Shown one piece after another: positions 28,909 through 63,188 of a stretch of 64,000 nucleotides of DNA. Every line of letters begins with the position of its first letter. Position 1 is the stretch's first letter. The stretch is from a virus (lineage: Duplodnaviria > Heunggongvirae > Uroviricota > Caudoviricetes). The notes below the pieces were generated by a model that saw nothing but the letters and a program-made list of their open reading frames with translations, made no database searches and was not told the origin of the DNA. The stretch lies in IMG/VR virus record IMGVR_UViG_3300032156_000005, positions 1-64,000 of that record; one strand, given 5' to 3'. Position numbers and translations under genes: made by a program.

Positions 28909-29520
28909 CTATATCATCATCAATGTCTTGTACACCTTTGCTTCTGCCAATGCATCAGCCAGGGCGTCGTGGGCATTAATTACTGGTATGTGAAGCTGTT
29001 TACACATAGCCGATAGACCTACCGTAGGGAAGGGAATCTGCTCCCCATGAAAATGGGCCCTATCATTTATTGACACGGCAAAAAGCATGGAATCTCTTGG
29101 ATGTGGATGAAAAAACTGATTGAAACTTTCCATACCCAACCATGCCTTTAGGAACCCAGCTTCAAATGCCCAGTTGTGTGCCAATGGAACAAGTGATTTA
29201 CGAAAAGGTAATTCAAGTCGTTGAAACCACTCATCAAATAAGTCAGCCACACGCTCTTGACTAACACCTTCTTTTGCCAGTTTGAATATGTCAATACCGT
29301 GGATTATCGTAGCTTCCTTTTCAGCACGCTCAGGATACATTGGTGCGATTTTCCAGTAAAAAGGATGCACGTCCTCTAATGGTTCCATGTCGCTATTAAG
29401 TGGTTGTACCGCTATCTGAATAATCTCATGATATCCTGGCATAGTGCCAGTAGTCTCAACGTCCACTGCCGCTAGTAGGTTGTGGTTAATGTTTACTAGA
29501 CTGTTGTAGGTCCTAGGCAT
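28909..29520 (-). CDS. DnaQ-like 3'-5' exonuclease (DEDDh family)
   Basis: Exo I AAVDVETTG, Exo II HNWAFEAGFL, Exo III HDALADALAEAK. Confidence 0.7.
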   Translation of the reverse strand: MPRTYNSLVNINHNLLAAVDVETTGTMPGYHEIIQIAVQPLNSDMEPLEDVHPFYWKIAPMYPERAEKEATIIHGIDIFKLAKEGVSQERVADLFDEWFQRLELPFRKSLVPLAHNWAFEAGFLKAWLGMESFNQFFHPHPRDSMLFAVSINDRAHFHGEQIPFPTVGLSAMCKQLHIPVINAHDALADALAEAKVYKTLMMI

Positions 29521-29999
29521 TAGCGACTCCTCTTCTTCGCTGGCTTCTTCGCTGGCTTCTTCGCTGGCTTCTTCGCTGGCTTCTTCGCTGGCTTCTTCGC
29601 TGGCTCAGTTGGCTGAATGTTGTATGGGTTATCCTGAATCTCCAGTGGATTATTGGGCATGTTATTTAATGACTCGGGTAACAATCCCTCTTTAATCATT
29701 TCTTCCGTCTCAAAGTAGCAGGCAAGATTCCACAAGGCTGCTACCAGATGTGGCTCATCACGATGCCCAATTAGATGCTTACCAGCATGCCTGATAGCAC
29801 TATCGATGTAACACCGTAGATCAATTCCCTTTCTCCAATTATCAGGTCCATATTTGGTGGCACCGTCCTCAAAGTGTTGTGCTAAACGGATCAGTGATCG
29901 CATAGGCAGCAGATCCATTCGCCCCTTGCCTGATGCACAATCTCGCACGGCCCCGGTAGAAAATTGTCTACGTGTTCCAGAATCCTTTAATGTGGCCAT
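29520..29999 (-). CDS. dATP/dGTP diphosphohydrolase-like N-terminal domain protein with C-terminal (PAKK)6 basic tail
   Basis: Motifs SGKGRMDLLP...GATKYGPDNWRKG...RHAGKHLIG.RDEPHLVAALWNLACYFE match, from memory, the phage dNTP-diphosphohydrolase N-domain pattern. C-terminus PAKKPAKKPAKKPAKKPAKKPAKK. Confidence 0.45.
   Translation of the reverse strand: MATLKDSGTRRQFSTGAVRDCASGKGRMDLLPMRSLIRLAQHFEDGATKYGPDNWRKGIDLRCYIDSAIRHAGKHLIGHRDEPHLVAALWNLACYFETEEMIKEGLLPESLNNMPNNPLEIQDNPYNIQPTEPAKKPAKKPAKKPAKKPAKKPAKKRSR
29532..29603 (-). repeat. Perfect 12-bp x 6 tandem repeat (CTTCTTCGCTGG) encoding (PAKK)6
   Basis: Six identical head-to-tail copies between 29532 and 29603. Confidence 0.9.
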
Positions 30000-30013
30000 T
30001 ATTTTCTCCTTTA

Positions 30014-30736
30014 TTAGTCAATCTCGATTATTTGTTGAACTTCTGGCTTATAGTAATCAGCTTTAGCTACGAGCATCCGTAAATTATGGGTTACTTGTAC
30101 GTCTCCACCTAAATGTGTATGTCCACATAGAATCGTGATATTACAATTTGGACGATGGTTCGCGTATTCTAGTAATAGATCTCCAACTGCCTTACAAGAA
30201 AAATAGGGTTGGTAGTCTGGGTCGTTCATAGCAAAAGGTGGAACATGTGTAGCGACAATAACATTAGGAAACTTACAGGCTAGATCAAGTAGTGGTCGTA
30301 GCATCTTGGCTGCATCGTCGCCCAAACTGTAGAGTTTGGATCTCAAATCACTGCGTCCACGCAGTTCAGCGATGAAATTCCAATCGTTTAGGTATACATT
30401 CGAGGTATCTGTATTGCCATACCTGCAATCACCCCAGCCATCGACTCCAATCAAAGCAGTTTTATTCGTTAGTTGGACTAGGGCAGTTGACAAATAACCA
30501 GAATGCTTTGCAGCTAATTCACGGCTGGCTTCAATTGACCCGTGATAAGAATCATGGTTTCCTAACACAAAATAAGTATTAGTATGCAAGTCGGCTAAGA
30601 CTTCTTCTAGAATATGGGCGTCTGCAAGATCACCAGTTATGATAAGGGCATCCGCGTCCACGGAGTTTAAAAAATCTGTCCTTTGCTGCTTAGTCACAAA
30701 ATTAAAGTGCAAATCACTTGCCCATGCTATTTTCAT
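30014..30736 (-). CDS. Calcineurin-like metallophosphoesterase
   Basis: Motifs ASDLH (D-x-H), ITGDLAD (GD), LGNHD (GNH[DE]), ATHVPP and CGHTHLG (GH-x-H). Start at the second in-frame Met (MKIAWASDLHF), which avoids overlap with the small upstream ORF. Confidence 0.7.
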   Translation of the reverse strand: MKIAWASDLHFNFVTKQQRTDFLNSVDADALIITGDLADAHILEEVLADLHTNTYFVLGNHDSYHGSIEASRELAAKHSGYLSTALVQLTNKTALIGVDGWGDCRYGNTDTSNVYLNDWNFIAELRGRSDLRSKLYSLGDDAAKMLRPLLDLACKFPNVIVATHVPPFAMNDPDYQPYFSCKAVGDLLLEYANHRPNCNITILCGHTHLGGDVQVTHNLRMLVAKADYYKPEVQQIIEID

Positions 30737-30746
30737 TCTAGTCTTT

Positions 30747-30908
30747 CTAAACAGAGTAAATCTCTTCCCGCTCTTCAATCGTCATATACTCGCCCCCATG
30801 CATTCGGGCGAATTTAATGGGATCCCGTTTAAAATCACCAGTCCACTGTATCTCCGCAACTGGAAAATCATACTCAGCATCTCGATAAATGGTGATAATG
30901 TATTCCAT
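30747..30908 (-). CDS. Small hypothetical protein (53 aa)
   Basis: ORF MEYIITIYRDAEYDFPVAEIQWTGDFKRDPIKFARMHGGEYMTIEEREEIYSV filling the gap between the primase-helicase and phosphoesterase genes on the same strand. Below the track's 60-aa cut-off. Confidence 0.25.
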   Translation of the reverse strand: MEYIITIYRDAEYDFPVAEIQWTGDFKRDPIKFARMHGGEYMTIEEREEIYSV

Positions 30909-36789: not shown

Positions 36790-36862
36790 AAGCAGGGTGG
36801 AGTAGTTGGTAACTCGATTGGCTCATAACCAATAGATCGTCGGTTCAAGTCCGGCCCCTGCC
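36790..36862 (+). tRNA. tRNA with CAU anticodon (Met / fMet-like / possibly Ile2-lysidine)
   Basis: Manual cloverleaf fold. Acceptor 36790-36796 pairs with 36855-36861 (6 bp plus an A1·C72 mismatch). U8, D-stem GAGU/ACUC, D-loop AGUUGGUA with G18G19. Anticodon stem AUUGG/CCAAU, loop CUCAUAA. 5-nt variable loop. T-stem GUCGG/CCGGC, T-loop UUCAAGU. Discriminator A. No encoded CCA. Confidence 0.8.
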
Positions 36863-36910
36863 ACTATGGACGTACCGTTCTTTTGTCACGGTAACTTTTA
36901 GGGGGTAAGT

Positions 36911-38818: not shown

Positions 38819-41590
38819 ATGATACCCTTAAATACGCCCACCACCATCAAGTTGGAAACAACGACCCAATCAGGGGCTCGTGTTAGGGTTCCAGCTACAA
38901 TCTTGGCCACTGACGCCAGGATTGAATTCTTAAAATCCCCCTTCTCTTTGAAGGACGAGATTAAGGCAATGAAGCATGCCGAGTGGCAGGGGTACAAGGA
39001 TCCACCAAGGAAAATTTGGACAGTAGAAAACTGTCAACGTAATTGGTTTCAATTACAGGTCATGATGGGGGAAAATCCCTACGAATGGTTTGATCGTCCA
39101 CTCCAGCATTTCAAATATGATCGCCCTCTGATGGGTCACCAGTTTGATATGTCGGACGCTGGACTCACATACCATTATCAACTCTTCGGAGCAGAAATGG
39201 GCTGCATTGCCGGGGACGCTATTGTTCACGTAAACCGTGCTGGTAGGGGATTTGCGTTTTGTTTGAGTGAACTTTGTTATAAATTCCACGGTGGTCGGAG
39301 TAGCGGCACGACGATGCGTTCCGACACCCGCGGTAGGTCATGGGATCTGAGTATTCCAACCTATGTCCAAGGATTTAAGGGCGACCGAATTGGACTAGTT
39401 AAGATACAGGATGTATTGTATAAGGGGCGGAGAGAGGTTGTTCGCGTGACTTTGGAGACAAAATCACTGACACTGACTCCAGATCACGAGGTCTGCATAG
39501 GAGCCTTTAGGTATGGTAAGTTTAAACCAGTTCAGGATCTAGTAATTGGTGACCGTGTTATGGTACGACTTGATGATGGAGTATCCGATGAGGTTAATAG
39601 CGAGGTACAGGCACTCCCGAGTACGCTAGTAAAGACAACAACGCGTGGTATGGGTTACTGGCTAGATAAAGATGGATATATACGTATCGGCGGTCTAAAG
39701 GGTCATCCACGTTGGGGTGCCCACGGAGTCTACGAGCATCTTCTAGTAATGGAAGATTTGCTTGGCCGACCTGTGCAGATTGGCGAAGAGGTTCACCATA
39801 AGAATAAACAGCGATGGGATAATCGTCCGTCGAATTTAATTTTGTGTGCGACTAAAACAGACCACATGGCATTGCATCAAAATTACAAGAATTTAAAATG
39901 TGGGTGTTATGTGTTTGAATGTGTCACCGGCATTAAAGACGCCGGGTCGATTGATGTCTATGATATCCAATGTGAGGGTCCATACCACAACTTTGCCGCT
40001 AATGATATAATTGTCCATAACTGCGGCAAAACTTTGTCAGCCATTGAAACGATGGAGAAGTCAGGTAAAAAGAAGTGGTGGTGGGTAGGTCCTAGATCTG
40101 GACTCTATGCAATCGAGCGCGAATTTAAGAAATGGGAAATCAGTCCCAACCTTGAAGTGGAGTTAATGACCTACGAGGGTCTGGTAAAACGCATGGGAAT
40201 GTGGAAGTCAGGCGACCCCGCTCCAATGGGTATTGTCTTCGACGAAATCAGCAGGTGTAAAACTGCCAAGACGCAACGAACACAAGCCGCCCAGGCTATT
40301 GCAGACGGTGTCCGTGCTGATTGGGGTCTAGAAGGTTACGTCCTTGGCATGTCTGGCACCCCATCCCCCAAGTCACCTGTGGATTGGTGGGCGCCGACGG
40401 AGATCATTTGGCCTGGATTTTTACGCGAGGGGGATTCTAATGCGTTCAAATTTAGACTTGGGATTCACAAAAAAGAAGAGAGTGCTATGGGTAATGCCTT
40501 CTGGCAACTCGTGGACTGGAGAGACGACGAACGAAAATGTGATGTTTGCGGAGAATTTAAGGAAGAGGGTATGCATTCATGTCGTATCGGCACGGATTTG
40601 AATGGGACGGAATCGGACATTCATGATTTTAAAGCCAGCATAAATGAGGTGGCATACCTTAATGAGCGACTAAAGGGGTTGGTCATCGTGAAGCTGAAAA
40701 AGGACTGCCTCGATCTGCCAGAGAAACAGTATCGACAGGTATTCTGTAAACCATCACCAGCAACCGTCCGAGTTGCTGAAGCCTTGATGAAATCGGCACC
40801 AAATACCATTACTGGTCTAACTCGTCTTCGTGAATTGAGCGACGGGTTTCAGTATAGGGACAAGGTCGTTGGTAAGGAAACTTGTCCAATATGCAAGGGC
40901 ACTTGTTTGAATACTTACTGGGTAGATCCAGAAGATTCTGAGCGTGCTTTTACTATGACCGATATGTTAGACGCAGAGTATGTATCTACATTGATTCAAA
41001 CTGAGATGCCATGTGTATCATGTAATGGCACGGGCGAAGTCGCTAAGATCGAGCGTCAAGTGAAAGAAGTACCGTGTCCCAAGGAAGCGGAGTTAATTAA
41101 TCTCCTAGACGAAAACGAAGAGACTGGCAGGTTGGTTGTATTCGCTGGTTTCACTGGTTCGATTGACAGAGTGACCAACGTATGTATGAAGCAGGGTTGG
41201 GACGTGATTAGGGTTGATGGACGTGGTTGGTTGACTTTTAAGGCTGACGGAGAAACAACAGCCGAAGCGCCATTGGATTATTGGGCTGACGTTGTGAATC
41301 ACCCACGAGTAGTATTTGTTGCACATCCGAAGTCTGGCGGTATGGCCCTGACATTGACCGAAAGTAGAATGATCTGTTTCTACTCGAATGACTACAATCC
41401 AGAATCCCGAAGTCAGGCCGAGGATCGTATACATCGTCCTGGAATGGATATTAATCGTGGAGCAACAATAGTTGACTTGTTACATTTACCCACCGATTTA
41501 AAGGTGCTGGAGATACTGAAAGCTAATAGGCGTCTAGAACTAATGTCTCTCGGCGAATTTCAGGGCTGCTTTCAAGATGTCGAAGCATAG
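38819..41590 (+). CDS. SNF2/DEAD-like helicase interrupted by an intein in the Walker A motif
   Basis: Exteins give Walker A FGAEMG|CGKT and a DExx-like FDEISRC. Helicase C-terminal motif VI is QAEDRIHRPGMDI, preceded by ...VVFAGFTGSIDRV.... Cys4 clusters CPICKGTC...CVSCNGTG. The intein occupies 39203..40021. Confidence 0.7.
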   Translation: MIPLNTPTTIKLETTTQSGARVRVPATILATDARIEFLKSPFSLKDEIKAMKHAEWQGYKDPPRKIWTVENCQRNWFQLQVMMGENPYEWFDRPLQHFKYDRPLMGHQFDMSDAGLTYHYQLFGAEMGCIAGDAIVHVNRAGRGFAFCLSELCYKFHGGRSSGTTMRSDTRGRSWDLSIPTYVQGFKGDRIGLVKIQDVLYKGRREVVRVTLETKSLTLTPDHEVCIGAFRYGKFKPVQDLVIGDRVMVRLDDGVSDEVNSEVQALPSTLVKTTTRGMGYWLDKDGYIRIGGLKGHPRWGAHGVYEHLLVMEDLLGRPVQIGEEVHHKNKQRWDNRPSNLILCATKTDHMALHQNYKNLKCGCYVFECVTGIKDAGSIDVYDIQCEGPYHNFAANDIIVHNCGKTLSAIETMEKSGKKKWWWVGPRSGLYAIEREFKKWEISPNLEVELMTYEGLVKRMGMWKSGDPAPMGIVFDEISRCKTAKTQRTQAAQAIADGVRADWGLEGYVLGMSGTPSPKSPVDWWAPTEIIWPGFLREGDSNAFKFRLGIHKKEESAMGNAFWQLVDWRDDERKCDVCGEFKEEGMHSCRIGTDLNGTESDIHDFKASINEVAYLNERLKGLVIVKLKKDCLDLPEKQYRQVFCKPSPATVRVAEALMKSAPNTITGLTRLRELSDGFQYRDKVVGKETCPICKGTCLNTYWVDPEDSERAFTMTDMLDAEYVSTLIQTEMPCVSCNGTGEVAKIERQVKEVPCPKEAELINLLDENEETGRLVVFAGFTGSIDRVTNVCMKQGWDVIRVDGRGWLTFKADGETTAEAPLDYWADVVNHPRVVFVAHPKSGGMALTLTESRMICFYSNDYNPESRSQAEDRIHRPGMDINRGATIVDLLHLPTDLKVLEILKANRRLELMSLGEFQGCFQDVEA
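39203..40021 (+). mobile_element. Intein (273 aa) with HNH homing-endonuclease domain, inserted in the helicase P-loop
   Basis: Starts Cys (CIAGDAIVHVNRAG, block A) and ends ...NDIIVHN followed by +1 Cys (CGKT). The internal HNH motif is EEVHHKNKQRWDNRPSNLILCATKTDHMALH. Removing it restores the contiguous P-loop GAEMGCGKT. Confidence 0.75.
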
Positions 41591-41746: not shown

Positions 41747-42286
41747 ATGGGTTTAACCTTCTTTACGTCTGATCTACATCTTGGTCACGGTAATATACTC
41801 AAGCATCAGCCCGTTAGAGCCATTGAATTTGGCGACATAGATACGATGGACACCCATCTTATTGATTCGATCAATAAGACGGTGTCTAAAAATGATGAAT
41901 TATGGATCCTAGGAGACTTCGCGTGGAAGGCGAGCCGTTACGGACATTATCGGCAACGCTTGAAGGTCCGTAAGTTGCATGTTGTAATGGGGAATCACGA
42001 TTCGTCGTCGTTACGGATTCACGTGTCATCCTTGAATGATATGGTTTGTCATAAATTCGACGGAATTAAGTTCCACTTAACCCATTATCCTATGCTATCT
42101 TGGAGTTCCAGTAATCATGGCTCTATTCATTTATACGGGCACTGTCATGGAACGGTGGAAAATCGATTGCGTGGGAGATCTATGGACGTGGGTATTGACA
42201 ACGCACGTAAGTTATTAGGTGCATGGCGTCCATTTTCAATTAATGAAGTATTAGGATTATTGAATGTTGACATTGGGAATAGTTAG
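41747..42286 (+). CDS. Calcineurin-like metallophosphoesterase (179 aa)
   Basis: Motifs TSDLHLGH, ILGDF, MGNHD, HLTHYP, YGHCHG. Confidence 0.65.
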   Translation: MGLTFFTSDLHLGHGNILKHQPVRAIEFGDIDTMDTHLIDSINKTVSKNDELWILGDFAWKASRYGHYRQRLKVRKLHVVMGNHDSSSLRIHVSSLNDMVCHKFDGIKFHLTHYPMLSWSSSNHGSIHLYGHCHGTVENRLRGRSMDVGIDNARKLLGAWRPFSINEVLGLLNVDIGNS

Positions 42287-42977
42287 ATTATTGATCGACG
42301 ACGTACTACCTACGCTTTCTAGTAAAGAGTCCGTAGTATGTTTATCCCGTAGTGGAATAGTCCCATGTGACTTCAAGGCTATTACTGACTACATGCAAGA
42401 GACTGGTTATCCACCGACACCTGGACCATACTCAGGAAAAGAGATGTTCCTGGATTTGGGATTTAATACGTATGACGACATAGACTTCGTACCGGACGAA
42501 GGCGTGTCGATTGTACACGATATGAACACACCCTATTGTGGTGACGAATACAGTCTCGTATTTGAATGCGGTACAATGGAGCATATCTTTGATACTGCTC
42601 AAGTGTTTAAGAATACAATTAATCTGTGTGAAGTTGGTGGGACAGTCTGCCATATATCTCCACTGACGTGGTTGAATCATGGTTTCTATAACTTTTCATT
42701 AACACTATTTTACGATGTCTATCGAAACAATGGTTTTGACGACTTCAAATTTTGGTTGATAAACTGGCCTAGGAATTATGGACAAGTGGGCTCCTCAAAG
42801 GCCATGAAGATTGATTTCACACCAACTCAAATTTTACCACCAATTGGTTCTGATTTTTTGATGGTCGCTTTTACGGCACGAAAATCGCATAAGTGTGATT
42901 TTAAGATTCCAATACAAGCGGCCTATGACCCCAGCCTCGCATTAAATACTCCACTACGAAAGCATACAAATGAATAG
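42264..42977 (+). CDS. Putative class I SAM-dependent methyltransferase
   Basis: Motif I-like MFLDLGF, acidic motif II DFVPDEG, motif III region YSLVFECGTMEHIFD, then NLCEVGGTV (L..GG). The true start may be the internal Met near 42393. Confidence 0.45.
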   Translation: MLTLGIVRLLIDDVLPTLSSKESVVCLSRSGIVPCDFKAITDYMQETGYPPTPGPYSGKEMFLDLGFNTYDDIDFVPDEGVSIVHDMNTPYCGDEYSLVFECGTMEHIFDTAQVFKNTINLCEVGGTVCHISPLTWLNHGFYNFSLTLFYDVYRNNGFDDFKFWLINWPRNYGQVGSSKAMKIDFTPTQILPPIGSDFLMVAFTARKSHKCDFKIPIQAAYDPSLALNTPLRKHTNE

Positions 42978-44139
42978 ATGTTTAGCTTGCGGACACTTAG
43001 TTTCACGCCAATTATTCAATCCAGGTCCACAACCGTTATCGGCGTTGAATTTACCTCGGAGCGAGTCTGAAGCAGTGGATGCCAACAGATTTCCAATGAA
43101 CTTTCGATGCTGTGGAATCTGTGGCCATGTGTGGAACACTGACTTCGAGTACACTAAAGTACCCTATGCGGGGGACTCAAATCTCATGTATAACAGCGGT
43201 GCGTTGTGGCAAGACCACATGCAAATGCTGGTGAGTAAGTTAGCTGAGAACAAGGCTATGTGGGTTAAGAATCCAGTTATTGATATTGGTTGTGGCGATG
43301 GGCAATTTCTTTCGTTACTACTCAAAGCAGTACCCGAAGCAAAGTGTGTGGGCTTTGAACCGGGTATTGATGGTACTAAAATTACCGAGTTTGAATGTGT
43401 ACAGGATTACTTTCGACCAGAGCGAGATATTGCGGCAAGACAACCATCGTTACTTATTTGTCGCCACGTCTTAGAACATATCGCGGACCCACGTGATTTT
43501 ATTGCCTCTGTTGCATACTGGTGTGGACAATGTTCCGTTGCGACCGTGTTTTTAGCTGAAGTTCCATGTTGCGAAAAGGCATTGGAGTCGGGGAGAGTGT
43601 CGGACTTTTTATACGAACATGTTTCCAACTTTACACTGAACAGTCTATATGCGATGTTTGGCACTTCTGGTTTTAAGTTGCTTGAAACTTCACGTTTATA
43701 CGGGGACGAAGTGGTCGTTGGATTTTTCCAGCCGCATGAGGAAGCTTTGAAACAGAATCATCGGTCAATGCTTAAATTCTCGACTTACGTGCAGGACTCA
43801 AGAACAAATATCCAATTGAAGCAATCTAATTTGGATGGCGATGTTGTTCTATGGGGTGGCACTGGAAAGAGCGCAGCATTTTTGAATATGTTCGGATTCG
43901 ATGCAGATCGCTTTCCTGTGGTGGTCGATTCAGATCCACTAAAAGTAGGTAGGTATGTTCCAGGAACGGGGCAGAGGATTGATTCACCAGATAGTTTGGT
44001 AGGACGAACACCAACTATCATTATTACAACTGCATGGCGTGCTAATGACATCTATGCAGAGATCAATCGCCGTGGCATTAGATACAAGAGTCTATTAGTT
44101 CTTAAAGACGGAGACTTGAATGAGTATACCCAATCTTGA
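42970..44139 (+). CDS. Zinc-ribbon C-methyltransferase-like SAM methyltransferase (TylCIII/NovU-type architecture)
   Basis: N-terminal C-x-x-C...C-x-x-C zinc ribbon (CLACGH...CCGICGH), SAM motif I VIDIGCGDGQFLSLL, then a C-terminal extra domain (~120 aa). The arrangement is as in NDP-sugar C-methyltransferases. Confidence 0.55.
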   Translation: MNRCLACGHLVSRQLFNPGPQPLSALNLPRSESEAVDANRFPMNFRCCGICGHVWNTDFEYTKVPYAGDSNLMYNSGALWQDHMQMLVSKLAENKAMWVKNPVIDIGCGDGQFLSLLLKAVPEAKCVGFEPGIDGTKITEFECVQDYFRPERDIAARQPSLLICRHVLEHIADPRDFIASVAYWCGQCSVATVFLAEVPCCEKALESGRVSDFLYEHVSNFTLNSLYAMFGTSGFKLLETSRLYGDEVVVGFFQPHEEALKQNHRSMLKFSTYVQDSRTNIQLKQSNLDGDVVLWGGTGKSAAFLNMFGFDADRFPVVVDSDPLKVGRYVPGTGQRIDSPDSLVGRTPTIIITTAWRANDIYAEINRRGIRYKSLLVLKDGDLNEYTQS

Positions 44140-45877
44140 TTTGTATGACTGCCTAGCCCTACTAAAGAGGCAAGACTACCTAAAATTAACTCAAAATTTG
44201 ATCGAGGTAGTTAAACATTTTAACCTTGTCTGTTATACGCAGCTAAGTCGAGCAGAGCGCGTTAATTTAGACGATTGTATGTCTACATTTTTCTTTATTT
44301 TTTCTCATCCCAGTTTTCAAATACCTGCTGATTACGCGAAGGTATTTGTTAATATAAATCATGTCATTTCAAATATGGCAATGATGTCGTCAGTTGGTTC
44401 AACGCTTCCGGCATTAAATCGAGTAGCCCTACAGGATAATAACTACGTAAAGCTTCTAACATTATCAACCTGTCAGACACCACTCGATGTGAATTTTAAC
44501 GACCTGTTTACTCCTAATGCGGAGTTGACTTCGGTTTGGTGGTTGAATTATCAGACGTCAGCAGCGGGCACGCTTACCAAGGAAGTACACGATCGAGTAG
44601 TTTCCCATCTTCAGAGTATGCCAGAGAAGTTTGTATTGTCGGATTTTCGCACGGCACCACTTTATTTTCAAAGTACCTACTACTCTCCTGAAACTGATTA
44701 TATCATTAAAACAGAGTTGAATCGTCAAGTACGATCCAAGTTGTCCAGTGCAAAGATACAAACAATAAATCCTAAGAGAGTGGCCATTATTACTGATAGA
44801 TGGCAACCCACCACAGCGGTATATAAGAGTTGTTATCATCAAATTGAAGCGTTATCGAACAAGTATGACCTAACTTTGGTTTATTTTTCAGAGGACAGAG
44901 AATCAAAGATTGATAGGGGGCTCTTCAAAGAAACTAAGCGAGTTTACTTGGAGCCAGATATGAAGCGATTAAATTTCTCTGAGATCAAGCATAACGATTT
45001 TAAGTTTGCATACTTCCCAGATATCGGCATGAATTACGAGTCGGTTTGTCTGTCAAATATGCAAGTTGCACCAATCATGGCCACGGGTTACGGCCATCCA
45101 GTTAGTACCTTTGGTAGTAAGATTGACTATTTTATTGGTGGTATGGACGCTGAAGTGCCAGAACTCGCCGAGAAGAATTACAGTGAGAGACTAGTGCTTA
45201 TACCTGGAATTGGGGCTCATCCGGTCTTTCCAAACTACGTGCGAAAAAACCCCACCCCGTCTAAATTTATTATCAACTGTTGTTGGACTGCTCCAAAGAT
45301 TAACTACCCAATGCTAGAAGCATTGAAAGAAATCAAGTCGCGGGCTTCCAAGCCAGTGCATTTTCAGTTTTTCCCGTCCTGGACGGTTAGCCGATACCAG
45401 TCCGCATTACCATTTCTAACTGGAATGGACAAGGTATTTGAAGGAAATTCGACGGTATATTTTGACACTCCCTACCAACAATACCTGGAGTTGTTGGAAC
45501 AAGGTCGATTTTCACTAGACTCGTATCCGTTTGGGGGTTATAACACGGTTGTGGACTCATTGTTTGTCGGATGCCCAGTTGTAACGATTGAAGGGTCTAG
45601 ATTCTTTAATAGGGCATCATCTGCGTTAATGCGTAAGGTTGGATTACCTGATCTGATAACAACGAGCGTTGAAGAGTACATTGGACTGGCTGTTGAACTA
45701 ATTGACAATAGCCAAGAATTAGATAGTCTACGATCCGTAATAGGTAGTACGGATTTAAAGAGCCTGTTAGTGGACAACAATGAACCTATTTCATTCGCAA
45801 ATGCCATTGAGTATCTCGTAGATACCCACATCGAATTGAAGGCTTCGGGGAGTCGAAAACCGATAATCTTGGCATGA
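44120..45877 (+). CDS. GT41-family (O-GlcNAc-transferase-like) glycosyltransferase
   Basis: C-terminal catalytic region FDTPYQQYLELLEQGRFSLDSYPFGGYNTVVDSLFVGCPVVTIEGSRFFNRASSALMRKVGLPDLITTSVEEYIGLAVELIDNSQELDSLR aligns by eye with the OGT block [49 protein letters not shown]. Confidence 0.55.
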   Translation: MSIPNLDLYDCLALLKRQDYLKLTQNLIEVVKHFNLVCYTQLSRAERVNLDDCMSTFFFIFSHPSFQIPADYAKVFVNINHVISNMAMMSSVGSTLPALNRVALQDNNYVKLLTLSTCQTPLDVNFNDLFTPNAELTSVWWLNYQTSAAGTLTKEVHDRVVSHLQSMPEKFVLSDFRTAPLYFQSTYYSPETDYIIKTELNRQVRSKLSSAKIQTINPKRVAIITDRWQPTTAVYKSCYHQIEALSNKYDLTLVYFSEDRESKIDRGLFKETKRVYLEPDMKRLNFSEIKHNDFKFAYFPDIGMNYESVCLSNMQVAPIMATGYGHPVSTFGSKIDYFIGGMDAEVPELAEKNYSERLVLIPGIGAHPVFPNYVRKNPTPSKFIINCCWTAPKINYPMLEALKEIKSRASKPVHFQFFPSWTVSRYQSALPFLTGMDKVFEGNSTVYFDTPYQQYLELLEQGRFSLDSYPFGGYNTVVDSLFVGCPVVTIEGSRFFNRASSALMRKVGLPDLITTSVEEYIGLAVELIDNSQELDSLRSVIGSTDLKSLLVDNNEPISFANAIEYLVDTHIELKASGSRKPIILA

Positions 45878-45899: not shown

Positions 45900-46946
45900 A
45901 TGAGTGAACTACAAATAACCGCTGTTACAATCGACGAAGTTATACCACATCCAAATGCCGATAGACTAGATCTATTACGCATTGGAGCCTACACTGTCTG
46001 TGAGACACGTGGCAAGTATAAGGCTGGGGATATTGTGGCCCATTTTCCTCCAGACATCCTATTGCCTAACATCACGGCCAAGCAGCTTGGAGTTGAGAAC
46101 TACCTTAAAGACGCCATCTATCCAGGGGATACCTATAAGAGTAAGTGTCGTGTCGCGGCTATTAGATTGCGTGGTTGTGCCTCATTTGGATTCGTAGTTC
46201 AAACACGATGGGCCGCTGTTCAGAACGATGATTTAATGGCTCGTTTTCATGGCGTTAAATATGAGGCCCCCGAACCCACATGGTATAAGCAAGGCGAGTG
46301 CGCAAGCGGTGATACCCGATTCCACAAGTATACGGACATTGAAAATTATAGAACGTCTAAGTATACCTGCGCCATTCCGACTGGAACTCCGGTACGGCTC
46401 ACGGAAAAGCTACACGGCGCGAACTCAAGGGTGGGTATCATTGATGGCGAGTTTATGTGTGGATCTCACAATTGCTGCAAAAAGGAATCTGTAGATTCAC
46501 TTTGGTGGGCACCACTTACACGCGACATGCGTGACATGCTTCACTGTATCGCCGAGGACGGTAAGAATGTGATTGCATTCGGAGAAATCTTTGGTTCCAG
46601 GGTTCAGTTTATGGACTATGGTATCATCGGTAATTGTGGCTATCGTCTATTTGATATTTCCGTGGATGGAAATTATCTCGATTGGGATATGGTGAAGTAT
46701 TACGCTACGCGGTTCTGCATCCCATTGGTACCGTTACTTTATACCGGTGAATTTACACATGGAATAGTAGATCAGCATGTTGATGGTCCAACGACTATGG
46801 GAGAAGTACACTCCGCATTCAAGGGGCGTGAAGGCATTGTAATCACGCCACTTACGGAAACATTCAGCCCGCGTCTTGATGGTCGTATGATTCTAAAGGC
46901 ATTGTCGGTAGATTACCTGGAACAACGAAAGAGTGATAGCCATTAA
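45900..46946 (+). CDS. RNA ligase (Rnl2-like nucleotidyltransferase with N-terminal extra domain)
   Basis: Motif I LTEKLHGANSRVGII matches the lysine-adenylate motif of T4 Rnl2 (EKIHGTN). Downstream nucleotidyltransferase motifs (FGEIFG..., LFDISVDG) and an N-terminal ~150-aa domain are present. Confidence 0.65.
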   Translation: MSELQITAVTIDEVIPHPNADRLDLLRIGAYTVCETRGKYKAGDIVAHFPPDILLPNITAKQLGVENYLKDAIYPGDTYKSKCRVAAIRLRGCASFGFVVQTRWAAVQNDDLMARFHGVKYEAPEPTWYKQGECASGDTRFHKYTDIENYRTSKYTCAIPTGTPVRLTEKLHGANSRVGIIDGEFMCGSHNCCKKESVDSLWWAPLTRDMRDMLHCIAEDGKNVIAFGEIFGSRVQFMDYGIIGNCGYRLFDISVDGNYLDWDMVKYYATRFCIPLVPLLYTGEFTHGIVDQHVDGPTTMGEVHSAFKGREGIVITPLTETFSPRLDGRMILKALSVDYLEQRKSDSH

Positions 46947-47232
46947 TAAAAATACGATCGAAAAATTTATCGCTAATTATCAGGGTGGCAACTTAGCTTC
47001 CGCTTTGGCCGCCTTCCTGTCTAAAGCGGCATCAATTCAGCAGGAACGTATGCGTCTAGACCAAGAATTTGGTAAGATACAGGAGGAGTTTCGAGCTAAT
47101 AAAGTATGCTGGGAACGTAAGGTACAGAATTTTCAACGGGGATGTTCACACGCCGAAGTGCGTTATATTCCCGATCCCGCTGGTGGATCCGACTCTTACA
47201 ATCAATGTCAATTTTGTGGTAAGGAATTCTAA
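46933..47232 (+). CDS. Hypothetical protein with C-terminal zinc ribbon (99 aa)
   Basis: C-x-H...C-x-x-C (CSHAEV...CQFCGKEF) at the C-terminus. Confidence 0.35.
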   Translation: MIAINKNTIEKFIANYQGGNLASALAAFLSKAASIQQERMRLDQEFGKIQEEFRANKVCWERKVQNFQRGCSHAEVRYIPDPAGGSDSYNQCQFCGKEF

Positions 47233-48549
47233 ATGAAGTTAAACTCTAAGAAGGCGACCGAGATCAAAACCTTGCTGGCCTTGGGTGGCCGATCACAAAA
47301 GGACATCGCTAAAAAATTTGGCGTTAGTCGGTCTATTGTTTCAGATATTGCTACGGGCAGGGCTTGGAAACAATCCTCTGGTAGTGCGCCAGCTAAATGT
47401 GCTGGTGGCCAATCAAAGGCGTCGGTCAACTACGACCCCACAGATGCCCGAATCTTAGAACTAGGGTCAGAAGTCCTACATCTACGGGATGAGCGTAGCA
47501 CGCTACAACGACAGGTTAAGGCCATGTCCAAGACTCATGGCCTATTTAAAGCCGTCGCGAATGAAATGGAATCGATAGTAGTGCCTCTAACTTCTCTGCC
47601 TTCTTATCCGATTACCATGGGACTGAACTCGAAACAAATCGATGAACATCTAGTGATGCACATTAGTGACGGACATCATGACCAAATTGTGCGTCCGGAA
47701 GAATGTGGCGGCTTGGAACGCTATGACTTTAAAATCAGTGCTCGTAGGGCTGAAGTCTACGTAGATACTGTCCTAGATTGGTCGCAACAAACATTGTCTC
47801 CGCAATTTAATTTCAAGTCCCTAACAGTGCTGGCGTATGGCGACCATACCTCCGGTGAAATTCATGGTAGTATGCAGCGATCTTATTTCCGAAATATGTT
47901 TAAGAACTCTGCCGCTATCGGTCAACTTCATGCTTTAATGTATCGGGATCTCGCCCCTTATTTTGAGACAGTCAATATTGTTTATGTTCCTGGAAATCAT
48001 GGTCGGAGATCTATTAAGAAGGACTATCACGGGGCACAGGACAATTGGGATTATTTAGTTGCGGACACGGCTCGACAGTATTGTCGTGATATCGAGAATC
48101 TCAATTTTGTTATACCTGATTCGTGGGCTATTAATTTGGATATCGGCGGTGTTGGATTTAGTTGCTTCCACGGGGACGACATTCGTAGTAATCTTGGTGT
48201 GCCGTGGTATGGCATGGAACGGAGACAGAATCGAATAACTGCTTTGACTTCAATGCAGGGCGGTAATCGCGTGCGGTATCTATGTTGTGGGCATTTTCAT
48301 CGGCCTGCGACACTGGCTCAATTTGATGGCGAACTAATTATTAATGGCCCGTGGGTGGCAACGGACGCATACGCCTTCAACGCTCTTGGTGCATATACCG
48401 AACCGTCACAAATGTTACATGGTGTCAGTGAAAAGTATGGTGTTACTTGGAGGTTACCAGTTAAACTAAAGACAGACAATGAGCATCTAGGTCCACAACG
48501 GTATAAGATTCCACTGATGTCGGAGGTTGGATATGACTCGAACCTGTGA
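47233..48549 (+). CDS. HTH + calcineurin-like metallophosphoesterase (polynucleotide 2',3'-phosphatase candidate)
   Basis: N-terminal HTH IAKKFGVSRSIVSDIATGRAW. Phosphoesterase motifs LAYGDHTSGEIHG (GD-H), YVPGNHGRRS (GNH), CGHFHRP (GH-x-H). Lies between the RNA ligase and a P-loop kinase. Confidence 0.55.
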   Translation: MKLNSKKATEIKTLLALGGRSQKDIAKKFGVSRSIVSDIATGRAWKQSSGSAPAKCAGGQSKASVNYDPTDARILELGSEVLHLRDERSTLQRQVKAMSKTHGLFKAVANEMESIVVPLTSLPSYPITMGLNSKQIDEHLVMHISDGHHDQIVRPEECGGLERYDFKISARRAEVYVDTVLDWSQQTLSPQFNFKSLTVLAYGDHTSGEIHGSMQRSYFRNMFKNSAAIGQLHALMYRDLAPYFETVNIVYVPGNHGRRSIKKDYHGAQDNWDYLVADTARQYCRDIENLNFVIPDSWAINLDIGGVGFSCFHGDDIRSNLGVPWYGMERRQNRITALTSMQGGNRVRYLCCGHFHRPATLAQFDGELIINGPWVATDAYAFNALGAYTEPSQMLHGVSEKYGVTWRLPVKLKTDNEHLGPQRYKIPLMSEVGYDSNL

Positions 48550-48862
48550 TTTAGAGTATCAGACCATTAGTAGTGGAAATACTCTTATTCTAATGCACGG
48601 GTTGCCCCGTTCTGGAAAGTCAACTTGGGCACGGCAACAAGGATTTCCAGTCGTAGACACGGACGCTATAAGACTGTCTAAGACCGGGCAACGATGGTAC
48701 GGACCAACCGAGCATGAAATAGCCCCCTTTGCGCTCACAATGATTCGTGCATTATTTGTAGCGGGGCATAAAACAGTAATACTAGATTCCAATGCATACC
48801 TACGAAAAGAACGAGATTTTTTTTCGATGCTCCAGCGATATTCTGTGGGCTCGGTATGTTAA
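48527..48862 (+). pseudogene. P-loop polynucleotide-kinase-like protein, frameshifted at a T8 tract (continues in +1 frame to 48998)
   Basis: Walker A MHGLPRSGKST, then VVDTD. The ORF ends 13 codons after a T8 run (48817-48824). The +1 frame ORF 48792..48998 continues from the T-run (…FFRCSSDILWARYVKLINTP…), giving a ~157-aa kinase-sized product if joined. Confidence 0.5.
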
Positions 48863-49061
48863 ACTGATTAACACACCAATAGAAACTTGCAAGTTGCGTG
48901 CAGAAGCCACATATCCGGATTTGGTTCCTATTATTGACTGGTTTGTAGAAAATCATCAGTTGATTGAATATGACGAGGATATTAAGACATGGATCTAAAC
49001 TACCATACACATGGAGTTACCATAATGCCAGACTTTATTTCTGCACTAGATTTCTTAGGAA

Positions 49062-54716: not shown

Positions 54717-56396
54717 ATGCGAACCGGTTCTCGAATTATTGGAGCAAGACGAATGAGATTTCATCTATTTGGGTTAGCGAACATCCCAACGTGTAAAGAG
54801 AATACCTATGAACCCATGACTCCACTGGTTTGGAACATGGCTAAGATGCTACATGACCACGGCCATCACGTCATCTTCTATGGTGCCGAGGGGAGTAATC
54901 CACCTTGTAGCGAGCTAGTAAATATCGTTCCAAAGGATTTGTTACCTGATCCCGCTATTGGAAATCACGGTGTACCCATGGCAGCATGGAAAAACGACGG
55001 CGGCAGCCCTTCCTGGCAGTCTTTCATAAATACTGGACGACTGGAATTGCGTAAACGCTACCAGACGGGTGATATTTCACTCATTAGTTTTGGTCAGTAC
55101 CAAAGATTCGTGGCAGAGGAATCAAAACTCGCTTGTGAATTCATGTGCGGATACTCAGGTATTTTTAGTTACCATAAGGTTTTTCCATCTAGTGCTTGGA
55201 TGCATTATCTATATGGTGAACTCAAAATGGAACGAAACCCCACTTGGACTGATTGTGTCATCCCACATTACCTGGATCTAAGTGACTTCAGATACCAAGA
55301 GGAAAAGGGCGACTATCTTCTATGTCTGGGTCGAATCGATCGAGATAAGGGCACAGACATCGCCATCGACATCGCAAATAGGAGTGGCTCCAAGATCATC
55401 GTTGCCGGTGTCGATATGGTAACGCACGATATTCCGGATTGGATTAAACAAATGCCGGGTAACGTAGAATTTGTTGGCTACGTGGATACAAAGCGAAGAC
55501 TCGAACTATTACGTGGTGCCAAGGCATTATTGCATCCATGTAGGTGGTTGGAGCCATTTGGGATGGTTTTAATTGAATCGTTGGCTTGTGGCACGCCGAT
55601 TATTGCTAGTGACTGGGGTGCCCTACCTGAGATTATTGAAGAGGGTAAGACTGGTTTTTGTTGCCGGGATATGTCTGAGTTTATACAGGCCGTAAAGAAT
55701 GTGTCATACTTAAATCCGCGTGATTGCCGTATTTCCGCCGAACGGGATTATGGGCTGGAGATTGCGTATACAAGGTATATGAAGTACTTTACGCGACTTG
55801 CCAAACTACTGGGAGGTGGCTGGTATGAGACCAGAGGTATCTGGCGTGGACCAGATGTTGTTGGGCGGGTACGCCGACTACAACCGACTGATAAACCACT
55901 ACGAGGGGCAGAGATCGGTGTTGATCGCGGTGCTTTGTCAGGGTATCTCATGTCTGAACTACCTAATCTCAATTTGTTATTGGTTGATACCTGGAGTACC
56001 TTCGCAGACGATTCAGGGTACACAAAATCTGGTGATCTTGTAACCCAACGAACACAAGAACAGCGGGATGCTGATCTGTTTGAAACTATGCGTGTCACTC
56101 CTCGTGATCGTTCTTGTATCTGTAGAATGACATCCGCCGAAGCTTCTGAAAAGGTTTTAGACGGATCGCTTGATTTTGTATTCATTGACGCAGACCATAG
56201 TTATGAGGGTGCCAAATCTGATATACAGTTATGGGCCTCTAAGATACGAGATGGTGGCATTCTTTGCGGGCATGACTTCGGTATGGAAACGTGGTTCCCT
56301 GACTGGGGTGTTACAAAGGCGGTTACTGAGTACGCGGAAAGCGTTGGTAAAACTGTTGAGTTGGGTTCTGATTGGACATGGTTTATCCAGGTGTAA
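54717..56396 (+). CDS. Glycosyltransferase (GT-B, GT1/GT4-like) fused to a class I SAM-dependent methyltransferase
   Basis: GT signature EPFGMVLIESLACGTPIIASDWGALPEIIEEGKTGF (E-x7-E motif). The C-terminal ~190 aa carry MTase motifs GAEIGVDRGALSGYL (motif I-like) and LDFVFIDADHSYEGAKSD (TylF/macrocin-O-MTase-like FIDADH). Confidence 0.6.
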   Translation: MRTGSRIIGARRMRFHLFGLANIPTCKENTYEPMTPLVWNMAKMLHDHGHHVIFYGAEGSNPPCSELVNIVPKDLLPDPAIGNHGVPMAAWKNDGGSPSWQSFINTGRLELRKRYQTGDISLISFGQYQRFVAEESKLACEFMCGYSGIFSYHKVFPSSAWMHYLYGELKMERNPTWTDCVIPHYLDLSDFRYQEEKGDYLLCLGRIDRDKGTDIAIDIANRSGSKIIVAGVDMVTHDIPDWIKQMPGNVEFVGYVDTKRRLELLRGAKALLHPCRWLEPFGMVLIESLACGTPIIASDWGALPEIIEEGKTGFCCRDMSEFIQAVKNVSYLNPRDCRISAERDYGLEIAYTRYMKYFTRLAKLLGGGWYETRGIWRGPDVVGRVRRLQPTDKPLRGAEIGVDRGALSGYLMSELPNLNLLLVDTWSTFADDSGYTKSGDLVTQRTQEQRDADLFETMRVTPRDRSCICRMTSAEASEKVLDGSLDFVFIDADHSYEGAKSDIQLWASKIRDGGILCGHDFGMETWFPDWGVTKAVTEYAESVGKTVELGSDWTWFIQV

Positions 56397-62102: not shown

Positions 62103-63188
62103 ATGAAAAGACGAGAATTTTTAATGCAGGCCCACAAATACAACGCAGTAAAATGCGATGTTTCTGGGCATTATATCTCTGAAAAGTTAGACGGAAGCCG
62201 ATGTTTTTGGGATGGAGGGATCAGCCGTGGGCTACCAACCGAAACAATACCTTGGGCCAATATCTTGGACCCAAAAACAGGTTTAAAGAAGTCTAAAATT
62301 AAACCCATTGCATCGGGTTTATGGTCCCGGTATGGTAATCCAATTATAGCCCCAGATTGGTGGTTGAATCAATTGCCATGCATTCCGTTGGATGGCGAGT
62401 TGTGGGCGGGTCGTGGAAAGTTCCAACTATGCCGTTCTATCTGTGCTAAAGATGTGCCCGTCTCCAGTGAATGGGCTCTATTAGACTATGCCATAATCGA
62501 CAGTCCTCCATTTTCAGCCGTCTTTATGGATGGCCGAATCAACTGCCCCAATTTTAGGCACGAAATTAACCTGGACTGTGTTTCTAAGTGGCTAGCCTCG
62601 CGTGATAGTCTCTTGCATGATTACAAATTCCTACCACTCGGTATGATTTTTGAACAGACTATGGCACTTCTACAGCAATCTGTCCCATCAGAAGGCAAAA
62701 TCTATCTACTGAAACAGAAGATTCTACCCGTGTCGAATGCCGCTGAAGCAGTTGAAAAAGAACTCGAACGGGTTCTCGATTTGGGTGGGGAAGGTGTGGT
62801 AATCCGGGATCCAACGAGTTCATGGATGCCCCAGCGACTGCACACGGTGCTTAAATACAAGCCATATTCTGACGCTGAAGGTACGATTATAGGATTTACC
62901 AGTGGTAGGGAGACTGAGAGGGGCTCTAAGCATCTAGGTAAGATCGGTGCCCTCATTCTAGACTACAAGGGTAAGAGGCTGGAGCTATCAGGCTTAACGG
63001 ACGAAGAACGGGAGTTTGCTGACAAGGATCAATTTTTCGCCACCTGTAATCCAGGTAAGGTCATGCCCGCTGGGACCTATGGAAAGCACTTCCAACTAGG
63101 CCAAACGATCACATTTAAGTACCGAGAATTATCAAATGACGGCGTTCCAAAGGAAGCCAGATACTTTAGACCACGGGATGAGGAATAA
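62103..63188 (+). CDS. ATP-dependent DNA ligase (small phage-type)
   Basis: Motif I YISEKLDGSRCFW (K-x-D-G-x-R adenylation lysine). Downstream nucleotidyltransferase/OB region with EGVVIRD (motif IV-like) and LKYKP (motif V-like). Confidence 0.7.
   Translation: MKRREFLMQAHKYNAVKCDVSGHYISEKLDGSRCFWDGGISRGLPTETIPWANILDPKTGLKKSKIKPIASGLWSRYGNPIIAPDWWLNQLPCIPLDGELWAGRGKFQLCRSICAKDVPVSSEWALLDYAIIDSPPFSAVFMDGRINCPNFRHEINLDCVSKWLASRDSLLHDYKFLPLGMIFEQTMALLQQSVPSEGKIYLLKQKILPVSNAAEAVEKELERVLDLGGEGVVIRDPTSSWMPQRLHTVLKYKPYSDAEGTIIGFTSGRETERGSKHLGKIGALILDYKGKRLELSGLTDEEREFADKDQFFATCNPGKVMPAGTYGKHFQLGQTITFKYRELSNDGVPKEARYFRPRDEE

Follow-up and report, generated by a model that had tools for sequence, protein, structure and literature searches.

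The genes considered here occupy positions 45900-48998 of a 64-kb window, the whole stretch of DNA analysed, from an uncultured Caudoviricetes phage (contig record ena:ERZ27248148 k141_3988739, 121,510 bp). They encode an Rnl5-type RNA ligase, a metallophosphoesterase with an N-terminal helix-turn-helix (HTH) and a polynucleotide kinase whose reading frame is broken (Table 1). The region sits inside a long co-directional array that runs from a primase and an intein-containing SNF2 helicase through a 179-aa metallophosphoesterase, a 237-aa open reading frame (ORF), a 389-aa methyltransferase and a GT41 glycosyltransferase to the studied genes, and 3' of these to a ParB-like protein, PolA, ribonucleotide reductase, dCMP deaminase, thymidylate synthase and an ATP-dependent DNA ligase. 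Promoter and terminator scans of 41-51 kb returned fewer sites than shuffled sequence, so operon boundaries cannot be drawn, and a blastn search with the 3.1-kb region gave zero matches among 50,697 phage records, which indicates that the phage has no close cultured relative. Window ORFs were searched against Pfam, PHROG (phrog_ identifiers) and NCBIfam, and structural matches were taken from PDB. An original prediction, made from the sequence of the window, saw in these genes three consecutive members of a split Pnkp/Rnl pathway. The motifs it relied on (EKLHGAN in the ligase, GDH/GNH/GHFH in the phosphoesterase and GLPRSGKST in the kinase) are present, and the profile matches to RNA_ligase, phrog_284 and AAA_33 exclude chance. 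All three genes do lie within ~3 kb and point the same way, but a 99-aa ORF intervenes and the kinase is split over two frames.

Table 1. Features of the 64-kb window discussed in the text, with the profile or sequence evidence for each.
Feature	Position	Strand	Evidence or remark
Rnl5-type (DraRnl/NgrRnl-like) ATP-dependent RNA ligase, 348 aa	45900..46946	+	Pfam RNA_ligase 1.7e-19
99-aa ORF, C-terminal Cys/His cluster (CSH...CQFC)	46933..47232	+	no Pfam, PHROG or NCBIfam family
HTH-coiled-coil-metallophosphoesterase, 438 aa	47233..48549	+	phrog_284 2.2e-37, HTH_3 9.8e-5
5' part of kinase gene, predicted T4-Pnk-like 5'-OH polynucleotide kinase	48533..48862	+	ATG 48533 after GGAGG; AAA_33 5.8e-7
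T8 homopolymer, kinase frame break	48817..48824	+	one T more than the frame kept by all homologs
3' part of kinase gene, +1 frame (ORF 48792-48998, 68 aa)	48825..48998	+	invariant, putative lid arginine in CKLRAE
179-aa metallophosphoesterase (context)	41747..42286	+	phrog_547 3.7e-42; PDB 1xm7 aq_1665 1.4e-6
389-aa methyltransferase, sugar C-methyltransferase architecture	42970..44139	+	Methyltransf_23 6.2e-14, Methyltransf_14 4.9e-11, Methyltransf_13 0.006
585-aa GT41/NGT-like glycosyltransferase	44120..45877	+	Glyco_transf_41 3.2e-10, NGTferase 1.4e-40
Separate ATP-dependent DNA ligase (context)	62103..63188	+	phrog_114, 1e-27

In the ligase, an N-terminal OB domain (residues ~1-125; PF21189, PHA02142 OB, at 10-100, 4.5e-4) precedes a C-terminal nucleotidyltransferase domain (PF09414 at 164-334) that carries no C-terminal appendage, and EKLHGAN (residues 169-175, 46404-46424) provides the motif I lysine, K170. 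The protein matches the NCBIfam model TIGR02306 (RNA_lig_DRB0094) over its full length (7e-30, 8-340/341), whereas the Rnl2 model TIGR02307 aligns with the nucleotidyltransferase core alone (residues 141-292, 0.0025), a match weaker by ~27 orders of magnitude. Consistent with this, the best solved structure is NgrRnl (5cot, E = 8e-7, residues 7-344 on 9-338), while the T4 Rnl2-type entry 2hvq is a marginal, core-only match (E = 0.007). The original prediction of an Rnl2-like enzyme was thus right in seeing an ATP-dependent RNA ligase and wrong as to its family, Rnl2 being rejected because an OB domain is present at the N-terminus and the protein ends at the nucleotidyltransferase domain with no Rnl2 C-terminal domain. 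Since its TIGR02306 score (104.1 bits) is below the curated equivalog cutoff (151.15 bits), we regard the ligase, judged by its sequence, as a divergent Rnl5 member; close homologs bear the JGI label 'RNA ligase (TIGR02306 family)'. Among 36 homologs K170, E229 and E311 never vary, K333 is kept in at least 90%, and the four residues correspond to K170, E227, E312 and K326 of NgrRnl, each of which is required for activity (PMC7261155). As side observations, the ligase homolog P0135 (507 aa) contains an intein, and in locus L122 (9983-11091; L-numbers are phage loci compared) there is a frameshifted ligase copy that may be an assembly error or reflect decay of an accessory gene.

Characterised Rnl5 enzymes perform template-directed sealing of 3'-OH/5'-phosphate duplex nicks and need RNA on the 3'-OH strand (PMC5397189, PMC4408790, PMC7261155). 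Their activity on single-stranded RNA is feeble, and it is Rnl1 and Rnl4 that are tailored to breaks in stem-loops, for instance in tRNA anticodon loops (PMC4408790). Rnl5 homologs have been reported from phages before (PMC4408790), their physiological substrates are still unknown (PMC5397189) and the sole physiological phenotype reported for a member of the family is slower post-irradiation genome reassembly in Deinococcus (DraRnl) (PMC5397189). The window encodes an ATP-dependent DNA ligase as well, which makes the Rnl5 enzyme an additional, specialised one; in L026 the equivalent region holds a gene whose product has a DNA-ligase OB domain (PF14743).

The 438-aa protein begins with an HTH (residues 1-46, 47233-47370), which bears out the HTH of the original prediction, and continues through long helices (72-113) into a phosphoesterase domain (~139-411). 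Its motifs (D146xH148, G203-D204, G254-N255-H256, H313 and G353-H354-x-H356, with GDH, GNH and GHFH at residues 203-205, 254-256 and 353-356) are all invariant in 30 sequences. The direct Pfam match of this protein is weak (Metallophos_2, E = 0.023), and its assignment follows from the five invariant metallophosphoesterase motifs together with the predicted fold. Neither the protein nor its 30-sequence profile matched anything but the HTH in PDB, and the NCBIfam search returned no Pnkp match. The AlphaFold2 (AF2) model, which is of moderate confidence, comes closest to PolD-DP1, SbcD and Mre11. Relatives in cultured phages (21-26% identity) are annotated as exonuclease, PolII small subunit or DNA repair nuclease, and no RNA ligase lies next to them in the two contexts inspected. 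The matches that Foldseek found in BFVD are a wide range of phage phosphoesterases, uncharacterised and for the most part 350-500 aa long, and the family itself has 932 matches, the top 120 protein clusters being 57-81% identical. So the binuclear metallophosphoesterase of the original prediction stands, but not its bacterial-Pnkp or lambda-phosphatase type. That type (CthPnkp D187, H189, D233, R237, N263, H264) was rejected by sequence, by fold ranking and by motif II, which reads GDHTSG here and lacks the arginine of GDxxxR that is essential in CthPnkp (PMC3675462). We infer that DNA is its target and that it may serve as a nuclease or phosphodiesterase during replication, recombination or the processing of ends. 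Among the scanned window ORFs none was recognised as an SbcC/Rad50 partner.

The 99-aa ORF begins before the ligase stop and runs right up to the start of the phosphoesterase. It is kept between these two genes, at 28-51% identity, in L001, L002, L003 and L005 and was not found in L004 or L007.

The kinase is, as far as its sequence tells, a T4-Pnk-type 5'-OH polynucleotide kinase, in line with the P-loop polynucleotide kinase proposed originally. Its family profile retrieved from PDB, in this order, T4 Pnk (1ly1, 1.9e-11), Pnkp1 (4xrp, 1.7e-10), PSTK and the CthPnkp kinase (4gp7, 2e-7). The 5' ORF (listed as 48527-48862, 111 aa) contains the P-loop GLPRSGKST (48599-48625), D44-x-x-R47 and D85, yet past T8 the gene is out of frame and the ORF stops 36 nt further on (48860-48862). 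Removing one T yields a 154-aa kinase colinear with its single-frame homologs, and with the frames fused the AAA_33 match widens to residues 18-123. By tblastn the fused protein aligns in one unbroken frame (residues 3-151, 57-65% identity) in L005, L006 and L008, and 34 of 34 aligned homologs (132-187 aa) are single-frame, with R-D/E-x-F encoded at the break site and no T run. Over 35 kinase sequences the P-loop, R47, D85, R94 and R122 do not vary, and D44 is kept in at least 90%; P-loop, D44/R47 and D85 align with T4 K15/S16, D35/R38 and D85, and HMMER places R122 opposite T4 R122 rather than lid R126 in a part of the alignment that is uncertain. A fused HAD (DxDxT) 3'-phosphatase was not found, the 154-aa protein being an AAA_33 domain alone.

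The frameshift is probably real, because the truncated 109-aa product, which is the window's database entry, recurs on three contig records (ENA, JGI, Logan), which may share the same reads. The contig name suggests a short-read MEGAHIT assembly, and T8 is one of four homopolymer runs of at least 7 bases in the whole window. A conserved programmed frameshift was considered and rejected: homologs are single-frame and lack the T run at the break, so T8 is not a conserved recoding site, and slippage that may restore the kinase frame here is without comparative support. Elsewhere, L117 (18093-18598; the same locus as L199) has another frameshifted kinase, broken just past the P-loop, which may again be an assembly error or accessory-gene decay.

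How the three genes are distributed was followed with hidden Markov models (HMMs) from three database-match sets, run against six-frame ORFs of IMG/VR loci with 10-kb flanks. At the 79 phosphoesterase-centred loci, where this gene is present in 79/79 by construction, ligase and kinase both occurred in 10, the ligase only in 12 and neither in 57; a kinase only was never seen. Expressed differently, a kinase lies within 10 kb in 10/22 ligase-positive and 0/57 ligase-negative loci (Fisher p = 4.5e-7, or p = 7e-4 for ligase and kinase in full-flank loci only, both uncorrected for phylogeny). Around the ligase (n = 79), the phosphoesterase was found in 24 loci, the kinase in 12 and neither in 55, and around the kinase (n = 80) an Rnl5 ligase was found in 9, with the phosphoesterase too in 8 of those 9. 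Next to the ligase in the 55 loci without either partner stand, among others, DNA ligase, NUDIX, NAMPT, Thg1 and a class II aminoacyl-tRNA synthetase. The dedicated three-gene module of the original prediction does not agree with 57 of 79 phosphoesterase loci being free of ligase and kinase. The arrangement varies as well. The ligase is just upstream of the phosphoesterase (4-650 bp) in 16/22 ligase-positive loci and more than 10 kb from it on several contigs, while the kinase follows the phosphoesterase directly, 0.2-2 kb or ~5.5 kb downstream, or precedes it by 6 kb, and in L026 comes directly after PolA. In L007 the GT41 gene is followed by the phosphoesterase with the ligase missing between them, and in L009-L011 the phosphoesterase follows the SNF2 helicase, with neither ligase nor kinase found on these short contigs.

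Ligase and kinase also meet outside this phage group. An unrelated integrase-bearing phage contig (L098:5333-11724) has RlaP, HD, Rnl5 ligase, Prim-Pol, HAD-type NT5C and AAA_33 kinase genes in a row and an additional phosphoesterase on the opposite strand, which to our minds is a convincing RNA-repair-like cluster, and a fuller one, in which ligase and kinase are of the same families as here. The candidate phosphohydrolases there are the HAD and HD proteins, not an HTH-metallophosphoesterase, and the phosphoesterases of the window show no specific similarity to the one in L098. Since the kinase was found only with a ligase nearby in the group of the window, and L098 pairs the two independently, a ligase-kinase partnership is plausible.

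On balance, and with somewhat better than even confidence, we read the locus as two accessory end-processing genes that flank a highly conserved gene of the replication module, and not as a dedicated three-gene Pnkp/Rnl module. The ligase would be adenylylated on K170 (by homology) and would seal 3'-OH/5'-phosphate nicks in duplexes whose 3'-OH strand ends in a ribonucleotide, and the stand-alone kinase, an accessory in about half of the ligase-adjacent genomes, would turn 5'-OH ends into the 5'-phosphate that the ligase needs. Between them the two may first heal and then seal nicks with a 5'-OH, whether in RNA:DNA hybrids, in RNA-patched or RNA-primed DNA or in base-paired RNA, and the conserved HTH-tethered phosphoesterase would serve a DNA-directed role in replication, recombination or end processing. 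Rnl5 biochemistry and the replication-module context make nicked duplexes that carry ribonucleotides at their 3' ends the likely substrate class. In the present phage, because the kinase is frameshifted at T8, the phosphorylation step would be lost or strongly reduced unless slippage restores the frame. What the sequences show directly is the identity of the genes, their intact catalytic residues, the frameshift and the spread over related loci; substrates, the order of steps and any part played by the phosphoesterase are inferred.

Several observations weigh against this reading. Outside the clade, 70 of the 80 kinase loci lack an Rnl5-type ligase (E <= 0.1, 10 kb); in these 70 loci HMM and phmmer searches added neither another Rnl5/Rnl2-like ligase nor a DNA ligase similar to that of the window. 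In the same way, neither the kinase nor this phosphoesterase accompanies the ligase in 55 of its 79 loci. The ligase-kinase association may also stem from shared ancestry within one clade. If T8 is an assembly error, the kinase is intact. The phosphoesterase retains its GNH histidine, a phosphate-binding residue reported to be a determinant of 2',3'-cyclic phosphodiesterase activity (PMC3675462), so that it may have a healing role.

Two other explanations keep some ground, albeit both look rather unlikely to us. According to one, ligase and kinase repair RNA, for example base-paired tRNA or rRNA cut by host ribonucleases, and 3' healing comes from another enzyme, be it the metallophosphoesterase at 41747-42286 or the one at 30014-30778 (with that at 47233-48549, three are available in the window) or a host enzyme. 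The clustering of the same ligase and kinase families with RlaP, HD and HAD phosphohydrolases in L098 speaks for it, as do RlaP genes sharing operons with RNA ligases (PMC12776372) and the presence of Thg1 (2 loci) and a class II aminoacyl-tRNA synthetase (1 locus) among Rnl5 neighbours elsewhere. Yet no gene for HAD, HD, 2H, RtcB or RlaP proteins was found among window ORFs of at least 140 aa between 27.5 and 63.2 kb (1-27 kb and smaller ORFs were unscanned), the small phosphoesterases lack specific similarity to that of L098 or to Pnkp, and the one Rnl5 phenotype on record concerns recovery from DNA damage (PMC5397189).

The other explanation, which we find similarly doubtful, denies any functional unit: accessory genes would be packed by chance into a variable slot, with the kinase a decaying pseudogene and the ligase acting alone or dispensable. 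Frameshifts of the kinase in the window and, elsewhere in the gene, in L117, and of the ligase in L122 would fit, and so would a kinase that is missing from 12/22 ligase-positive loci and has no fixed position, and whose neighbours in the 70 other phage loci are heterogeneous, without a ligase or phosphatase among the 25 commonest families. Set against this are the strong conservation of catalytic residues in ligase and kinase, the independent co-occurrence in L098 and the absence of any kinase without ligase in this phage group (0/57).

Repair of host tRNAs cut by anticodon nucleases, as the original prediction had it, with the phosphoesterase removing 2',3'-cyclic or 3'-phosphates, the kinase phosphorylating 5'-OH ends and the ligase resealing the tRNA, we hold to be improbable. 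In its favour, the genes run in one direction, the stop of one overlaps or adjoins the start of the next, and promoter and terminator signals do not exceed those of shuffled sequence. The frequent position of the ligase just upstream of the phosphoesterase, a binuclear site that is intact including the GNH histidine, and the proposal, made for a few jumbo phages, that calcineurin-like phosphoesterases act in healing (PMC7824862) speak for it too. The comparative evidence, however, weighs piece by piece against anticodon-loop repair with the 438-aa protein as a Pnkp-like phosphatase: this protein stands alone in 57/79 loci and is missing beside the ligase in 55/79, it is not lambda-phosphatase/Pnkp-like, its HTH points to DNA binding, the ligase belongs to a family other than those that seal tRNA loops, and the kinase is frameshifted. 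Nor was a Hen1, RtcB, HAD, HD or 2H partner present among the window ORFs scanned, and we found no tRNA-repair-specific partner in the window and a single tRNA gene, tRNA-Met (CAT, 36791-36864).

Equally improbable, finally, is a phage-specific duplex-nick repair by all three enzymes on DNA with ribonucleotide 3' ends, such as RNA-primed or RNA-patched phage DNA, or on host-nuclease damage leaving 5'-OH and 3'-phosphate. The work would be divided between a DNA-tethered phosphoesterase for cleaning 3' ends, the kinase for 5'-OH phosphorylation and the ligase for joining RNA-3'-OH to DNA with a 5'-phosphate. If true, this would assign Rnl5 ligases a definite function in phage replication.

Returning to the preferred reading of two accessory genes around a conserved one, a clade with an Rnl5 ligase inside its DNA replication module and a separate DNA ligase besides offers a comparative handle on Rnl5 substrates, and a kinase that appears only where the ligase is near points to repair of nicked duplexes or RNA-DNA junctions rather than to classic tRNA repair. 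The case also counsels caution in annotation, for three adjacent 'repair-like' domains do not equal a module, and it was distribution that told one widely conserved gene from two accessory ones. Large and very conserved as it is, the HTH-metallophosphoesterase family may merit a study of its own.

Upstream of the ligase, the original prediction had placed S-adenosylmethionine (SAM) methyltransferases that might add a Hen1-like 2'-O-methylation step. One of these, the 237-aa ORF at 42264-42977, matches no Pfam, PHROG or NCBIfam family. The other, the 389-aa protein, combines a Zn-ribbon, a Methyltransf_23 domain and a C-methyltransferase C-terminal architecture and reaches only 12.6 bits (0.034) with the Hen1 model TIGR04074 against a cutoff of 340; with its sugar C-methyltransferase architecture and its GT41 neighbour it is not Hen1-like. 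Relatives with as little as 34-50% identity still have the block of 179-aa phosphoesterase, methyltransferase and GT41, and L007 keeps it without the ligase. As GT41 resembles UDP-glucose:protein N-glucosyltransferase, the block (41747-45877, which takes in the 237-aa ORF) suggests a phage glycosylation pathway with protein or another molecule as target. The 179-aa metallophosphoesterase itself matches TIGR04123 PdeM below cutoff (4.2e-8) and is kept with the helicase block. The SNF2-type helicase (38819-41590) has a ~274-aa insertion (residues ~129-402) with Hint and HNH signatures, and in the intein-free alleles of L009, L011, L021 and L022 residues up to ~128-138 join 403 onward. Further along, a 559-aa GT1-type glycosyltransferase-methyltransferase fusion (54717-56396; Pfam Methyltransf_24, PHROG match annotated 'DNA methyltransferase') adds a second glycosyltransferase to the replication module. 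Directly 3' of the primase gene, a minus-strand cluster (28909-30778) encodes a DEDDh RNase_T-type exonuclease (28909-29520), a dATP/dGTP diphosphohydrolase-like protein (29520-29999) and the metallophosphoesterase at 30014-30778 (Metallophos 2.2e-14). In L022 (13736-14843), ~0.5 kb downstream of the phosphoesterase, two adjacent ~180-aa ORFs with a PRTGS / PHTAS motif look sulfotransferase-like by eye, and Sulfotransfer_3 was seen twice among kinase neighbours.

Among known systems, the bacterial Pnkp-Hen1 pathway of Clostridium thermocellum has three chemistries nominally in common with the locus, a P-loop kinase, a binuclear metallophosphoesterase and an ATP-dependent ligase. The ligase shares with DraRnl and NgrRnl the order of OB and nucleotidyltransferase domains, near-equal length (348 vs 340-342 aa), full-length alignment, the motif I Lys, the motif III and IV Glu and the motif V Lys. 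Its motif I reads KxHG where NgrRnl has KxDG, a position at which D172A is tolerated in NgrRnl (PMC7261155), and unlike DraRnl and NgrRnl it is encoded in a phage replication module, adjoining GT41 and methyltransferase genes. Compared with the T4 Pnkp kinase domain, the P-loop GxxxSGKSTWA, the Asp-x-x-Arg pair and the D85 equivalent are shared, while the kinase of the window is stand-alone (~154 aa) and its gene frameshifted. As for the phosphoesterase, it differs from PolD DP1, SbcD and Mre11 in having an N-terminal HTH and coiled coil in place of OB or capping domains, and in lacking a sequence-level match to any solved structure.

As to gene layout, the megaplasmid of D. radiodurans has an Rnl5 ligase (DR_B0094 DraRnl) a few genes from a 5'-OH polynucleotide kinase (DR_B0098) (PMC5397189). 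DraRnl is radiation-induced with a DNA-repair phenotype, and DR_B0095 is DEDDh-like (PMC5397189); in L027 (2580-4725) a DEDDh RNase_T exonuclease gene directly downstream of the Rnl5 ligase parallels this DraRnl/DR_B0095 operon. The Deinococcus set is cellular rather than viral, with DR_B0098 in a different operon together with LigB, and the two are likened by layout, not by kinase homology. In jumbo phages, ATP-dependent RNA ligases, polynucleotide kinases and phosphoesterases are each encoded by a gene of their own, and a few cases involve calcineurin-like or HD phosphatases (Iyer et al. 2021, PMC7824862), so the set in the window belongs to a kind already described. Within that kind it stands apart in two respects: those systems mostly combine Rnl1, Rnl2 or RtcB with HAD phosphatases whereas the ligase here is Rnl5, and its calcineurin-like protein is a conserved gene that is widespread without ligase and kinase.

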